Part shown: piece after piece, positions 286-5,074 of the stretch | Layout: every line of letters starts with the position of its first letter | Position numbering within the stretch: the first letter of the stretch is position 1 | Program-made: the position numbers and the translations under genes | Sequence record: OQ561750 | Strand: one strand, 5' to 3' | Length of the DNA: 64,000 nucleotides | Origin: Escherichia phage LHE83 | Notes under the pieces: generated by a model | What the model saw: the letters and a program-made list of their open reading frames with translations, nothing else | What the model was told of the DNA's origin: nothing | Databases searched by the model: none

Positions 286-786
286 ATGAAAAAGTTAATT
301 ATCGCAATGAGTATGCTCCTATCAGGTTGCGCGGTCCAATATGGTGATACAGTTTCGGCTGATGAAGTTGGTAAAGCTCGTATCGCAGCTGAACAGAAAC
401 AATTCGATGGCGAAATGAAATTCCGTGCAGGTTCTGGACTTGTGTACACCCGAGCTAATAATCAATGCGGTAATAACTGTGCAAAATATGCTCAACAAGA
501 AATCGAATTCCAACGTGAACAAGAGTCCAAGCGTGAAGCGGTACTAGCCAAACACCAGGCAGAAATGAAGCGTCAAGATGATTTGTACAAAAAGCAGAAA
601 CTGTATGCGATGTGCGTAAACCATATCAATCTACAGATTTCCATCCACGAGGCTCGTTATTACGAAATGCTCGAAACCGAGAGCTTCGGTAAAGCTCGTG
701 ATTATAAGAAACAAATCGATAAGCTCAAGACCAAAGCACCGGCGGCAATAGAACAGTGTATTGAAATCGGTAAAGATAAGATTTAA
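286..786 (+). CDS. predicted lipoprotein, unknown function
   Basis: Signal peptide with lipobox LLSGC; SD GAGGA 6 nt upstream of ATG. Confidence 0.6.
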   Translation: MKKLIIAMSMLLSGCAVQYGDTVSADEVGKARIAAEQKQFDGEMKFRAGSGLVYTRANNQCGNNCAKYAQQEIEFQREQESKREAVLAKHQAEMKRQDDLYKKQKLYAMCVNHINLQISIHEARYYEMLETESFGKARDYKKQIDKLKTKAPAAIEQCIEIGKDKI

Positions 787-846
787 GCAATACCAATTTA
801 TTAAAAATAGTGTATAATGTACCTACATTCACTTGAGGAACAGATA

Positions 847-2520
847 ATGAAAAAGGTTGTTATTTTAGGCGCGGGTCTTGGCTCACGGTTGTATCCAATT
901 ACCAACGAAATCCCGAAGGTACTGGTTAACTACAAACAACATACTGTATTAAAACATTTGTATGATTTGTATAGTAATCAATCAGATGAAATTATTCTGG
1001 TTATTCACAGCAAATTTAACGACCTCGTTAAAGGCTATATTAAATCCATTAACATGATTAATAGTGATAAGCCTAAATTCACTATTCGTAACGTTGATGT
1101 TGCCAATGGTTCGGCTCATGCTATCGATTGCATTGCCGAAGATATCATTGGGCACAATGTCTTGTTTAACTGGTGTGATATTATTCCTGAAGGTCATAAA
1201 GTTGAGTGGGATAACGACTACTGTTATACCTATGGGACCGACTGTCGTTTTACATTTGAAGAACCGTACTTGCGTGAAATTGGTACCGGTGGTGGCGTAG
1301 TTGGCTTGTATCAGGTGGCTAATTGGACAGGTTTCGACCGTTCTAATTATGGTGAAGACCTTGCTGACAACCTGGATTCAATGGTCCATTTGACTGAACG
1401 TAAGTTAGACTTTGTAGTTGATGTTGGTGACAAACTGAAACTGGCTAAGGCCCATGAAGATTCTGAAATTAACCGTGAATTTAATAAATTAGAGTTCACT
1501 GAGAATCTAGCTATTAAAGTACCTACAAACGAATTAGGTAAAGAAATCCAATCTAAAGAAATCAATTGGTACAATTCTATTGATTCTGAATTCGTTCCTA
1601 GCATTGTAGACTTTGCTCCAGGTGAATTCATTAAAATGGAACGTATCTTTGGTCGAACCATGGCAGATGCCTACCGGTTTATGTCTAAAGAAACTAAAGT
1701 CCTAATGGTTTATAAGGTTATTAGTGCATTACGTTCGTTCGGTGGAACTATCGATAATCCGTCCGATGAGCAATGGTATTCTGATGTTAAGAAAGAAGTA
1801 TTGGACAAGGTCCTTATTCGTAATGCTTCTATTGCCGGATTGATTGAAGGCTTTGCTCCACAGGGTATTACCCATGTTAACGACTTCAAGGTAGGCGACC
1901 CAGAAAAACTTCTTCGTCACGCCTTAGAAATTCTGTCTGAACATAAAGAACCGTACCAACTTATTCATGGCGACCCGCACTACAGTAATATTATGTTGTC
2001 GGACGAAGGTAATATTAAAATCATCGACCCACGTGGTTATTTTGGTAATAGTTCTAAAGGCCCTGCGATTTATGATGAAGCTAAGGTGCTTTATTCTATC
2101 GATGGTTATGACAAATTTAACTCTGACCCTCTATGGGGTGGCTTAACTCGTAACGGAACTCGTGTATTCGTTGATATTGAAAAGGTTATGCCTTTAGATG
2201 ATATTCCGATGTGTACATTTAAGCACAAGCTCTGGATTGCCGTTATTTGGATGGCATTGGCAGGTTACTTTAAAAATAACCCTCTGAAAGCTCTGGGCGC
2301 TTATTACAATGGGCTATATCAACTGAGTGTGCTGCTGAAGCGGCATCCTCGTAAGCGTAAGCTTATCACAGGTGAATTCGTTGATGAAGTTCGCGACCCT
2401 ATCACGGCTCAAATTATCACTCGTTGTCCTGATAAGTGGGTTTTGCTTGACCAGGAAACTGGTGTAAAATATAAACCTACAGGTTCTACCGAACTCCACA
2501 AACAATGGAAGAAAATTTAA
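847..2520 (+). CDS. bifunctional sugar-1-phosphate nucleotidyltransferase / APH-like (anomeric sugar or choline-type) kinase
   Basis: N-terminal glycine-rich loop GAGLGSRLYPIT typical of GlmU/RmlA/MurU/LicC-type nucleotidyltransferases; C-terminal HGDPHYSNIM...IIDPRGY kinase motifs (APH/ChoK fold); start chosen at 847 (SD GAGGA), ORF-track start 817 lies inside the TATAAT. Confidence 0.75.
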   Translation: MKKVVILGAGLGSRLYPITNEIPKVLVNYKQHTVLKHLYDLYSNQSDEIILVIHSKFNDLVKGYIKSINMINSDKPKFTIRNVDVANGSAHAIDCIAEDIIGHNVLFNWCDIIPEGHKVEWDNDYCYTYGTDCRFTFEEPYLREIGTGGGVVGLYQVANWTGFDRSNYGEDLADNLDSMVHLTERKLDFVVDVGDKLKLAKAHEDSEINREFNKLEFTENLAIKVPTNELGKEIQSKEINWYNSIDSEFVPSIVDFAPGEFIKMERIFGRTMADAYRFMSKETKVLMVYKVISALRSFGGTIDNPSDEQWYSDVKKEVLDKVLIRNASIAGLIEGFAPQGITHVNDFKVGDPEKLLRHALEILSEHKEPYQLIHGDPHYSNIMLSDEGNIKIIDPRGYFGNSSKGPAIYDEAKVLYSIDGYDKFNSDPLWGGLTRNGTRVFVDIEKVMPLDDIPMCTFKHKLWIAVIWMALAGYFKNNPLKALGAYYNGLYQLSVLLKRHPRKRKLITGEFVDEVRDPITAQIITRCPDKWVLLDQETGVKYKPTGSTELHKQWKKI

Positions 2521-2879
2521 TGCATCTGTGTTTTGATATCGATAATACCATTACTCACTGGCAAGATGACCGTGATTACGAAAACTTTAAACCGGACACC
2601 GAAATGGTGTCCATGATTAATAAGCTTTATGATGAAGGGTACGAGATTACCTTGTTCACTGCCCGTGGTATGACTTCATGCGGCCCGGGTCGAATCTTGG
2701 TTGAAGTAGTTCCTGCATTAGTTAAGAACCTTGAAAAGATTGGATTGAAATATCACAATCTGCTTACACATAAGCCGAGTTATACTTTTATCATCGATGA
2801 CCGAGCAATCCGTCCTGACCACTTTAAAGAAATGGTTCGTGAAGGAACTCTTGAAACCTATAAGGCATATCATCCGTGA
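2520..2879 (+). CDS. HAD-superfamily phosphatase (small, capless type)
   Basis: Motif I FDIDNTIT near N-terminus, downstream T/K/DD motifs; TAATG overlap with previous gene (alternative start 2505). Confidence 0.7.
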   Translation: MHLCFDIDNTITHWQDDRDYENFKPDTEMVSMINKLYDEGYEITLFTARGMTSCGPGRILVEVVPALVKNLEKIGLKYHNLLTHKPSYTFIIDDRAIRPDHFKEMVREGTLETYKAYHP

Positions 2880-3412
2880 AACCAAAAATCATTGTTATCG
2901 ACGGCCCGGATAATTCCGGGAAGTCTACTTTAATTGAATCACTTTTATCTGATAAGAAATATCGTCTTATTGATTTCCCTAAAAAGATTAATGGCAAATG
3001 CATTTCATTAGGGACCGATAATGACAAGGCTTTAGTCGAGACGTTGTATAAGTTTTTAGACCCTAATTTCGTTTACATCCTTGACCGTGGTTATCCAAGT
3101 AATATTGTTTACTCGGGATTCCTTCGCGGTGAAATGGACCCTTATGTAGAACTGGAAGATTGGAAAAGGTTTAAATCTGAATTCAATATTATTGAGGTTA
3201 TTTTAACCCGTAATCCACTGGATAAAGACTTTGAAGATGACCTTATTAAATTAACCAAAGATGAGTTCAACCTAACTATCCGGCAATATGAAACATGTTT
3301 TGAAAACGTGTTTAAAATCTTAAATCACGACGGCCATAATAACTTGCTTAACGTCGATATGGTAGAATTAAAACGTCTGAATGAATATATTGAAAATAAG
3401 GTGAATAAATGA
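2876..3412 (+). CDS. thymidylate-kinase-like P-loop nucleotide kinase
   Basis: Walker A IVIDGPDNSGKST and DRGYPSNIVYSG resembling Tmk P-loop and DRxxxS..AYQG motifs; GTG start overlapping upstream stop (GTGA). Confidence 0.65.
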   Translation: MKPKIIVIDGPDNSGKSTLIESLLSDKKYRLIDFPKKINGKCISLGTDNDKALVETLYKFLDPNFVYILDRGYPSNIVYSGFLRGEMDPYVELEDWKRFKSEFNIIEVILTRNPLDKDFEDDLIKLTKDEFNLTIRQYETCFENVFKILNHDGHNNLLNVDMVELKRLNEYIENKVNK

Positions 3413-4107
3413 AACACATTACCGCTGTTAGTTTTGAAAACGCGTTTAAGCAAATGAACGAAGAAATCCTGGAAGCTCCACAGTTTGCAGTTGATTCTCG
3501 TATCGGCCGTTGTTATGAAATTGGTTCTGCTTCGGTAGAAGTACTGGATGCAAGCACCTATAAATTCACCGACCCTCGTATTAATCGTATCAACTATGAT
3601 TATGCCGAATCTTTCTGGAAGTTTATGATTTCTGGTGGTACTGACGCCGCCGAAGCATTTAAGGAATACCCTAATGTTGCTAAGTTCATTGATAAGCCGA
3701 AAAGTGACGTATTGCCTGCAAACTTCAACACTTTCTATGGACCTAGAATTGTGGCCCAACTCCCAGCCTTACTTAAAGAGCTTAAAGAGAAGCCTAACTC
3801 AAGACGAGTTGTGTTCCAAATTCTCCAAGAACAAGACCAAGCCCTCCTTGATTCTGACGAATCCTTAGAATATCCATGTACTGATTCAGTGACATATTAT
3901 ATTCGTGATGGACGTCTTTATGCACATACCCATATGCGTTCACAGAACTGTGCTATTGTTATGCAGCTGGATTTCTATCTGCAGGGTAAACTGATGGCCT
4001 TTATTGCTGAACAGTGTGGTGTTGGTCTGGGTACGTATTCCCATACTATGGTTAGTGCACACGTATTTGAACGTGATTTTGACTACGTTCGAGGATTCCT
4101 GAAATGA
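3409..4107 (+). CDS. thymidylate-synthase-fold enzyme, dCMP hydroxymethylase-like (divergent gene 42 homologue)
   Basis: SRRVVF, catalytic Cys in EYPCTD, HMRSQN and Asp (QLDFY) at the position of the TS specificity Asn as in T4 dCMP hydroxymethylase; only distant similarity to T4 gp42 by eye; ATGA overlap with upstream gene. Confidence 0.75.
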   Translation: MKHITAVSFENAFKQMNEEILEAPQFAVDSRIGRCYEIGSASVEVLDASTYKFTDPRINRINYDYAESFWKFMISGGTDAAEAFKEYPNVAKFIDKPKSDVLPANFNTFYGPRIVAQLPALLKELKEKPNSRRVVFQILQEQDQALLDSDESLEYPCTDSVTYYIRDGRLYAHTHMRSQNCAIVMQLDFYLQGKLMAFIAEQCGVGLGTYSHTMVSAHVFERDFDYVRGFLK

Positions 4108-4997
4108 GTTTGTTTATCGTTCCTATTTTCAGTATGCGTAGTTACGAAACAGGTGAATATGCCGTCCTTAAGGACGGTAATTTTCAACTCCATTTAAACC
4201 GTGCTTGCCCAGGTGATTATCTGGCTTATCCTAGAAATTCGAGCGATATCAAAGAATGCATTGAATTATTTCCTGAACTGAATTTTGTACCTCTTTGGTA
4301 TAAAGAAAATGCTTATGAAACTCGTAAACATTTTTGGTCTGAAAATGAGTTCGTTGTTGATTCGTTAATCGAATACTATGACTGCTCAGGATTGGTAACC
4401 GATATCACAGGTTATGATGGTGCTCATACCGTACAATTCAACTTTAACATTACAATGGACCCTGAAGTTCCTCGTTATTACATCGATGAGTTTATTGATA
4501 CCGACGTGGGTTCAGTTGAACGTTCGATTTATACCACAGTCCTGAATCAATGCCAGAAAGACGTCCTGGTGTCACGAGGTGCGTCCTCTGATAAGATTTT
4601 TGTAGACCAAAAGGTAATTAATCCGGCAGTAATTGAGCGTTACTCTGAAGGCCTAGCGCCTATTAAAATTGATGGTATTTTCCATCCATTCCGTATCTCT
4701 GATAAATGTTATCAATTCGAAAGAGTTGTAGACCAAGCTGCGGCTGAAGGTTCTCGCCTTTATATCACCGATCCGAATGATTCATTTAAGCGTGAAGACT
4801 ATCGTCCTGATGTAGAGATTATTAAATTCAAACCGAGTAAGGTTGAATATTATCAGATTCTGAAATCAAGACCTCATATCATTTATCATGAGAATCCCAG
4901 TTTAGTATTTCATCCTGGTCTAGCTGAATTCATTTATTTCGGTGCCCATATCCATTCTGAGCACGAAATGCCAAGTTATGAGGACGTGGTCCTTTAA
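4104..4997 (+). CDS. hypothetical protein at the beta-gt position (candidate DNA-modifying transferase)
   Basis: 297-aa ORF, ATGA-coupled to the 42-like gene and immediately upstream of uvsX; no motif recognised. Confidence 0.5.
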   Translation: MSLFIVPIFSMRSYETGEYAVLKDGNFQLHLNRACPGDYLAYPRNSSDIKECIELFPELNFVPLWYKENAYETRKHFWSENEFVVDSLIEYYDCSGLVTDITGYDGAHTVQFNFNITMDPEVPRYYIDEFIDTDVGSVERSIYTTVLNQCQKDVLVSRGASSDKIFVDQKVINPAVIERYSEGLAPIKIDGIFHPFRISDKCYQFERVVDQAAAEGSRLYITDPNDSFKREDYRPDVEIIKFKPSKVEYYQILKSRPHIIYHENPSLVFHPGLAEFIYFGAHIHSEHEMPSYEDVVL

Positions 4998-5074
4998 CGC
5001 TGTAAATGTGAAGTGATATAATTACCCTATCTTAAAACGTGAGTAAAATATAATGATGCCTATGGAAAAATATA

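Follow-up and report, generated by a model that had tools for sequence, protein, structure and literature searches.

The question raised by this locus is whether two overlapping genes, at 2520-2879 and 2876-3412 on the + strand of a 64,000-nucleotide stretch of Escherichia phage LHE83 DNA (record OQ561750; the whole stretch is referred to below as the window), act on one substrate or belong to separate steps of a pathway. The upstream gene encodes a 119-aa phosphatase of the HAD type and the downstream gene a 178-aa P-loop kinase resembling thymidylate kinase (Tmk). A first-pass annotation had read the two as coupled, and had placed them beside a gene resembling deoxycytidine monophosphate (dCMP) hydroxymethylase. 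Taking the evidence as a whole, the best explanation, which we consider probable, is that the window carries a minimal five-gene version of the T4-like arabinosyl-5-hydroxycytosine hypermodification operon, in which the HAD would act in the sugar branch and the kinase would act as a 5-hydroxy-dCMP kinase in the base branch. The two genes would thus stand at the junction of the operon's two branches.

The HAD protein, which starts MHLCFDIDNTITH (N-terminus MHLCFDIDNT), was analysed by alignment. Motif I, D6-I-D8-N-T10 (DIDNT), is encoded at 2535-2549 and aligned with motif I of the PDB entries 9iqw and 1xpj, while motifs II (T47, FTARG), III (K85, HKP) and IV (D93-D94, IIDDRA) were all kept relative to 9iqw, 1xpj and RB69 gp51. 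In the sequence alignment the 119 residues ran end to end with crystal structures of 126-134 aa, leaving no cap insertion. With its four motifs and no cap, the protein is assigned to the capless C0 type, in the EcbF/BcbF-AfhF subfamily, and the capless HAD with a DxD motif near its N-terminus that had been proposed at 2520-2879 was thus confirmed. The PDB matches had E values of 1.6e-51 (9iqw) and 3.5e-12 (1xpj), whereas the match to the capsule-biosynthesis phosphatase subfamily TIGR01689 (E 1.9e-14, 53.7 bits) lay below the 162-bit cut-off. The protein falls in phrog_1238, is 62% identical to RB69 gp51 and was found by homologue search in 378 phage records. The entry name of 9iqw is 'capsule biosynthesis protein', and its sequence and deposition series indicate that it is probably AfhF.

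The arabinosyl-5-hydroxycytosine system was already described in 2025-2026, with the Dhakavirus genus included, and Mahler et al. 2025 is reportedly one of the publications on the cluster. The DNA of RB69 and of Acinetobacter phage DLP3 contains mono- to tri-arabinosylated 5-hydroxycytosine (5hoC), in which the arabinose is joined to C5 directly, through an ether link, and dhakaviruses are among the genera listed with a syntenic cluster (Lee et al., NAR 2026, PMC13326640). In phage HY126, the bifunctional enzyme AfhE phosphorylates arabinose-5-phosphate at C1 and later turns arabinofuranose-1-phosphate into UDP-arabinofuranose, and between these two steps AfhF, an Mg2+-dependent HAD phosphatase, strips the 5-phosphate from arabinofuranose-1,5-bisphosphate, so that AfhE and AfhF together convert arabinose-5-phosphate to UDP-arabinose (He et al., Nat Chem Biol 2026, as summarised in PMC13326640). 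The window HAD is, as far as sequence can tell, the orthologue of AfhF and RB69 gp51, and is predicted to be the arabinofuranose-1,5-bisphosphate 5-phosphatase of UDP-arabinofuranose synthesis. The earlier suggestion that the phosphatase could trim a sugar phosphate agrees with the activity of AfhF as given in that summary. The HAD gene directly follows an AfhE-like gene, as it does in RB69 and Erwinia phage Virsaitis27, and its ATG shares one base with the upstream stop (TAATG). Its working partner would be this upstream AfhE-like enzyme and not the kinase.

The kinase gene starts with a GTG at 2876, which is the first ATG, GTG or TTG past the preceding in-frame stop, and since no other lies upstream of the P-loop it is the only possible start. 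With this start, the gene shares four bases with the end of the HAD gene (GTGA), and its stop codon likewise runs into the ATG of the gene that follows (ATGA). Homologues of the kinase, 27-99% identical to it, were found in 344 phage records; with each protein conserved across about 350 phage genomes, both can be taken as real genes. The P-loop, G10-PDNSGKST-18, is encoded at 2903-2929 and an invariant D70-R71 motif at 3083-3088, and a family-specific DFxDDLI motif lies around residues 118-124. Searches with the single sequence gave sub-threshold matches only, with 15.1 bits against a cut-off of 27 for Pfam Thymidylate_kin (PF02223) and 19.1 bits against 83 for NCBIfam DTMP_kinase (TIGR00041). 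A word-indexed protein search likewise returned few relatives, so that an exhaustive HMMER search was needed; run over 1.84 billion representative proteins, it yielded just 62 related clusters. A family profile built from 37 of these matched YorR of phage SPbeta (E 1.6e-11) and many thymidylate kinases (from E 2.5e-9), with alignments spanning the P-loop through a DRxxxSxxxY motif; sub-threshold Pfam Thymidylate_kin matches were obtained for 31 of the 37 members, and viral structure matches were likewise Tmk-like. The Tmk-like P-loop fold assigned by the first-pass annotation thus held, with P-loop and DR motif present on a Tmk-type fold. Within that fold, the P-loop position occupied by Arg in type I thymidylate kinases is Asn13 here, and an acidic hairpin with the invariant sequence DFxDDLI stands in for the LID; near it, only R112 is conserved.

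From characterised clusters, RB69 gp45 belongs to the same family (37% identity, E 6e-36), as does gp214 of Rhizobium phage RL38J1, with an hhalign probability of 91%. By this homology and by its linkage to thymidylate synthase (ThyA) homologues with the D169N substitution, described below, the kinase is placed with the RB69 gp45-type kinases of 5-hydroxycytosine clusters. Two other origins were considered and rejected. It is not a duplicate of gene 1, the T-even phage deoxynucleoside monophosphate (dNMP) kinase gene, as it has no similarity to gp1 of Escherichia phage QL01. Nor is it an analogue of the 5-hydroxymethyldeoxyuridine (5-hmdU) DNA kinases (5-HMUDK): the profile comparison to these enzymes that had been proposed as a check aligned M6 gp54 over 25 P-loop columns only (hhalign; 31 residues by BLASTP). 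No match to aGPT-Pplase, the partner of 5-HMUDK, was obtained among the six proteins scanned at 286-4997, and the neighbours of the kinase are instead a cytosine-specific hydroxylase (N177D, D169N) and a glycosyltransferase. The kinase is thus classed as Tmk-like and not as a 5-HMUDK.

The genomic partners of the two proteins were then compared. The published marker of 5-hydroxy-dCMP synthases is an Asn at the position of Asp169 of E. coli ThyA, and RB69 gp48, a thymidylate-synthase homologue of this type, uses flavin and O2 to produce 5-hydroxy-dCMP (PMC13326640). In Dhakavirus- and Marfavirus-like genomes the order is AfhE-HAD-kinase-(U32)-synthase-glycosyltransferase, and the adjacency of HAD and kinase is limited to these. 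In RB69, Virsaitis27 and several contigs the order is synthase-glycosyltransferase-kinase, with the kinase far from the HAD, and throughout the RB69, Erwinia, Rhizobium and metagenomic examples the kinase stands beside the synthase/glycosyltransferase block. Kinase relatives of 27-33% identity adjoin, and mostly overlap, D169N ThyA homologues in the mutually unrelated contigs L014, L015, L021, L026 and L030. The gene order is a MazG-like gene, a 207-aa gene, synthase, kinase and dCMP deaminase in L014; synthase, kinase, GT4 glycosyltransferase and a radical-SAM gene in L015; synthase followed by a kinase::HhH-GPD fusion in L021 and L026; and synthase, glycosyltransferase and kinase in L030. 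The portions of L014 and L015 that are visible contain no AfhE or HAD gene, and nothing could be learned from the contexts in L027 and L028, which were short or gave no Pfam matches. One relative is itself a kinase::ThyA-domain fusion. Phage RL38J1, whose DNA has hexosyl-5hoC and which has no arabinose module, has nevertheless kept a trio of D169N synthase, glycosyltransferase and a distant Tmk-like kinase; its glycosyltransferase is homologous to that of the window, and a separate gp1-like kinase is also present. As the kinase tracks the synthase and the HAD tracks nucleotidyltransferases, the former is placed in the base branch and the latter in the sugar branch, and in this phage they are neighbours by position.

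The HAD also has relatives outside these clusters. AfhF-like capless HAD genes of 32-36% identity occur in 18 Synechococcus phage records (S-SM2, S-T4 and S-SKS1 among them), and in S-SM2 the gene adjoins genes for a nucleotidyltransferase and for capsular polysaccharide. Among the ten organisms that head the lists of kinase and of hydroxylase matches, Synechococcus does not appear. This suggests a separate phage sugar-nucleotide pathway for these HADs.

Several fusions of kinase relatives were also seen. Kinase::HhH-GPD glycosylase-like fusions lie right after D169N ThyA homologues in two metagenomic contigs (L021:6001-7074 and L026:1446-2390), and downstream of the former are an NADPH-dependent FMN reductase, an SIS isomerase resembling RB69 gp55 and a gene of the AfhE type, with no glycosyltransferase visible; the reductase is a plausible supplier of flavin for the hydroxylase. 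The ThyA-domain fusion mentioned above (L022:268-1251, P0063) retains Asp169 and has N177D, and looks like a dCMP methylase or hydroxymethylase. In L023:6001-7035 (P0065), the kinase is fused to a UDG-like domain and lies beside methyltransferase and Gtf3-like glycosyltransferase genes.

The identity of the gene downstream of the kinase bears directly on its possible substrate. This gene (3409-4107, + strand) encodes a 232-aa member of the thymidylate synthase family with 79% identity to RB69 gp48 and matches to the PDB entries 9iqu/9iqc at E ~1e-125. In alignment with E. coli ThyA and RB69 gp48 it has the catalytic Cys157 (E. coli C146; 3877-3879), Asn180 at the position of D169 (3946-3948) and Asp188 at that of N177 (3970-3972), so that D169N, N177D and the catalytic cysteine are all present, the Asp at the N177 position being expected to confer specificity for cytosine. 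The product is therefore assigned as a flavin-dependent 5-hydroxy-dCMP synthase (dCMP hydroxylase) and not, as had been supposed, as a dCMP hydroxymethylase. It follows that the pathway contains no hydroxymethyl group to be phosphorylated, and the proposal that the kinase acts on a 5-hydroxymethyl group falls with it. The related proposal of a modified-nucleotide substrate has fared better and, through the linkage to D169N synthases, is the best-supported reading, with the modification changed from hydroxymethyl to 5-hydroxy.

At the other end of the operon, the AfhE-like gene (847-2520, + strand; 557 aa, its start at 847 being taken from the QL01 annotation) encodes a sugar-1-phosphate nucleotidyltransferase domain at the N-terminus, followed by a kinase domain of the APH type at the C-terminus. 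Pfam NTP_transferase was matched at residues 13-110 of the 567-aa open reading frame, and APH was also matched; the N-terminal part is 44% identical to RB69 gp53 and the C-terminal part 41% identical to RB69 gp52. By analogy with these and with AfhE, the predicted activities are D-arabinose-5-phosphate 1-kinase and UDP-arabinofuranose pyrophosphorylase. The last gene (4104-4997, + strand) encodes a 297-aa protein of phrog_3891 with 70% identity to RB69 gp47 and 63% to gp46, and 24.5% to RL38J1 gp215, for which neither a Pfam match nor a PDB sequence match was obtained; as an orthologue of RB69 gp46:47 and DLP3 gp79, it is a putative DNA arabinosyltransferase 1.

From these assignments a pathway can be proposed. 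In the sugar branch, as shown for the orthologues, the kinase domain of the AfhE-like enzyme would phosphorylate host arabinose-5-phosphate at C1, the HAD would take the 5-phosphate off arabinofuranose-1,5-bisphosphate, and the nucleotidyltransferase domain would convert the resulting arabinofuranose-1-phosphate to UDP-arabinofuranose. In the base branch, the ThyA-like enzyme would hydroxylate dCMP to 5-hydroxy-dCMP with flavin and O2, the Tmk-like kinase would take this to the diphosphate, and a host nucleoside diphosphate kinase would provide the triphosphate for incorporation by the phage polymerase. The glycosyltransferase would then arabinosylate the 5-hydroxyl, joining the two branches. 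A modified nucleotide is the most likely substrate of the kinase.

A number of observations speak against the kinase as the 5-hydroxy-dCMP kinase of this scheme. The RB69 gene 1 homologue, gp159, converts 5-hydroxy-dCMP to the diphosphate in vitro, and the synthase with gp159, or even the synthase alone, suffices to place 5-hydroxydeoxycytidine in E. coli DNA (PMC13326640), so that a second kinase is not obviously needed. The segment expected to bind the nucleoside monophosphate, residues 31-50, is poorly modelled (predicted local distance difference test, pLDDT, 62-69), is not conserved and appears to lack the thymine-contacting residues of thymidylate kinases, and substrate specificity can thus not be read from the sequence. 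The fusion of some relatives to DNA-glycosylase-like domains (HhH-GPD, UDG) hints at a role at the level of DNA. RB69 gp45-type kinases have been labelled only 'nucleotide kinase', from fold hits, and gp45 has never been assayed (PMC13326640); no assay of the Tmk-like kinase was found in the available literature, in which searches by Afh name and through citing papers returned nothing on the kinase, and no measurement of any Dhakavirus DNA modification was found there either. The expectation that gene 1 lies outside the window was correct: it is absent from the window and present elsewhere in the 99.3%-identical QL01, and since QL01 carries it, this phage presumably does so too. The Tmk-like enzyme would then be a dedicated, faster kinase, or have some other role.

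Four other roles were weighed. The likeliest of these, although itself improbable, is that the enzyme is an ordinary deoxythymidine monophosphate (dTMP) kinase or general dNMP kinase, an auxiliary nucleotide-supply gene placed here by chance, a reading that the public label 'thymidylate kinase' would imply. The thymidylate-kinase fold and motifs, the sub-threshold Pfam matches across most of the family and the presence of thymidylate kinases in many phages are all in keeping with this. However, the sequence falls far below the Tmk cut-offs given above, the family is narrow, with its 62 clusters among 1.84 billion proteins, and in different lineages it is linked to cytosine hydroxylases with D169N; moreover, the phage presumably already has gene 1, whose product handles dTMP in T4, and the host has Tmk. 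A further reading, to which we would give a small chance, is that arabinosyltransferase 1 acts on 5-hydroxy-dCMP and the kinase takes the resulting arabinosyl-5-hydroxy-dCMP to the diphosphate, a bulky substrate that the gene 1 kinase perhaps refuses, so that the first sugar would enter the DNA during replication. This would explain why a second kinase is kept beside gene 1, and it fits both the conservation of the synthase-glycosyltransferase-kinase trio in Straboviridae, Pootjesviridae and metagenomic contigs and the failure of single transferases to arabinosylate 5hoC DNA, in data that do not separate a first arabinosylation of the mononucleotide from a post-replicative one (PMC13326640). 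In contrast, later arabinosylation steps do occur on DNA (PMC13326640), and L014 and L026 have synthase-kinase pairs without a transferase in the visible part of the contig. All phage DNA glycosylations known to us are post-replicative, which also weighs against it. If it were nonetheless true, it would be the first case of a DNA precursor being glycosylated before replication, with the polymerase incorporating cytosine already glycosylated with arabinose or, in other phages, a hexose, and both the conserved trio and the failed arabinosylation of 5hoC DNA in vitro would be accounted for.

A role on DNA itself, in which the kinase would phosphorylate the 5-hydroxyl of 5hoC in the manner of a 5-hmdU DNA kinase and so activate or mark the base, appears very unlikely. 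Relatives at E 1e-12 carry a fused DNA-glycosylase-like domain of the HhH-GPD or UDG type, which recalls the pairing of 5-HMUDK with the HhH-fold aGPT-Pplase (PMC8989533). However, the validated 5-HMUDK M6 gp54 aligns over the P-loop only, the conserved DR motif and the fold are of the nucleotide-monophosphate kinase type, the pathway has no hydroxymethyl group, and an end product that is an O-glycoside keeps the 5-oxygen, so that activation of a leaving group would be unnecessary. The most improbable reading of all is that the kinase and the HAD are functionally coupled, sharing a single sugar or nucleotide intermediate of UDP-arabinose synthesis. The genes do overlap by four bases (GTGA), in keeping with the translational coupling described in the first-pass annotation, and adjacency is kept in Dhakavirus- and Marfavirus-like genomes, but the inference of a functional pair did not survive, as the two fall in different branches and their order varies. 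AfhE and AfhF together are reported to convert arabinose-5-phosphate to UDP-arabinose (in the account given in PMC13326640); the kinase lies away from the HAD, after the glycosyltransferase, in RB69, Virsaitis27 and other contigs; RL38J1, and L014 and L015 as far as they are visible, have the kinase but no HAD; and the HAD is present in phage records of Synechococcus, which is not one of the top-ten organisms of the kinase matches. A shared substrate for the pair was rejected on this comparison of gene orders and on the independent distributions of the two proteins. Phosphorylation of 5-hydroxy-dCMP by the kinase, with the HAD serving the sugar branch, thus remains our preferred reading.

The surrounding locus fits this assignment. 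The window derives from a Dhakavirus, a T4 relative similar to JS98, Bp7 and QL01, and over 800-5000 it is 99.3-99.5% identical to Salmonella phage ABTNLS3, QL01 and others. The five + strand genes, between the DNA polymerase/imm region and uvsX, occupy 847-4997 and all overlap or abut, with the successive junctions TAATG, GTGA, ATGA and ATGA; the overlap of HAD and kinase is therefore not specific to that pair. The RB69 counterparts of all five products lie in the gene block between gene 43 and uvsX, and the proposal that the locus serves cytosine hypermodification was upheld by this orthology. Scans for promoters and terminators performed no better than on shuffled sequence. Homologues of RB69 gp55 (arabinose-5-phosphate isomerase), gp3 (second arabinosyltransferase) and gp50 (U32-like) were searched for across the 64-kb window and none was found. 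KdsD/GutQ are the source of arabinose-5-phosphate in E. coli. As gp55 and gp3 homologues are absent from the window, the phage would depend on host KdsD/GutQ for this precursor and would probably make only mono-arabinosyl-5hoC. Between imm and the operon, there is a 166-aa open reading frame (286-786, + strand) with a signal of the lipoprotein type (MKKLIIAMSMLLSGC...). It is a member of phrog_1754, a group of unknown function, and has no obvious place in the pathway.

Although it has no counterpart in this window, a gene of the Peptidase_U32 family lies beside the ThyA-like hydroxylase gene in many 5-hydroxycytosine clusters, for example at L002:26492-27661 (RB69 gp50), L012:6703-7863 and L031:4494-6004 (Virsaitis27). 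The U32 proteins RlhA, TrhP and UbiU/V are prephenate-dependent, O2-independent hydroxylases. In Virsaitis27, a type II chorismate mutase gene (Pfam CM_2, E 1.7e-11) overlaps both the U32 and the hydroxylase genes, and from these two observations it could be envisaged that the U32-like gene may provide an anaerobic route to 5-hydroxycytosine. RB69 gp50 has been labelled a 'sugar or heterocycle reductase' (PMC13326640), and no paper linking U32, hydroxycytosine and phage was found in the literature searched.

A locus of this kind would let a T4-like phage replace every cytosine with arabinosyl-5-hydroxycytosine and thereby protect its genome against restriction enzymes, CRISPR-Cas and some glycosylase defences. 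As the pathway was published in 2025-2026, its recognition here mainly corrects public annotation. GenBank and RefSeq records matching 2520-4107 are systematically misannotated: the HAD is labelled 'phosphoheptose isomerase', which is a misnomer, or 'capsule biosynthesis protein', the kinase 'thymidylate kinase', and the hydroxylase 'thymidylate synthase', 'dCMP hydroxymethylase' or 'deoxycytidylate 5-hydroxymethyltransferase'. The Tmk-like kinase is conserved in every such cluster, linked to the hydroxylase across very distant viruses and apparently redundant with the gene 1 kinase; its substrate would also reveal whether the first sugar precedes or follows replication.

Compared with known systems, the HAD resembles AfhF of HY126, RB69 gp51 and DLP3 gp81 over its full length (62% identity to gp51), in its four motifs, its capless size and its position after AfhE, and differs in having 119 aa as opposed to 128-134 aa, without their short N-terminal extension; there is otherwise no substantive difference. 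With Tmk (PF02223, TIGR00041) and YorR of B. subtilis phage SPbeta, the kinase shares the P-loop and the P-loop Asp (D12), which in thymidylate kinases contacts the deoxyribose 3'-OH. Unlike them, it falls below all family cut-offs and conserves neither the thymine-binding segment nor an arginine-rich LID, and its genomic partner is a cytosine hydroxylase and not a thymidylate synthase. T4 gene 1 dNMP kinase and RB69 gp159 have the same proposed chemistry, the conversion of a modified dCMP to the diphosphate. The 5-HMUDKs (M6 gp54, ViI gp67) are likewise small phage P-loop kinases of hypermodification clusters with a ThyA-family neighbour, and the HhH-type fusions of some relatives of the window kinase add to the likeness; however, homology is limited to the 25-residue P-loop, and those enzymes act on DNA-borne hydroxymethyl groups. 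Close counterparts are RB69 gp45, DLP3 gp78 (of which the kinase is an orthologue) and RL38J1 gp214, members of the same family with the thymidylate-kinase fold and linkage to a D169N synthase, from which the present arrangement differs in that the kinase lies between HAD and synthase here and in Marfavirus, and after the glycosyltransferase in RB69, Erwinia phage and RL38J1.

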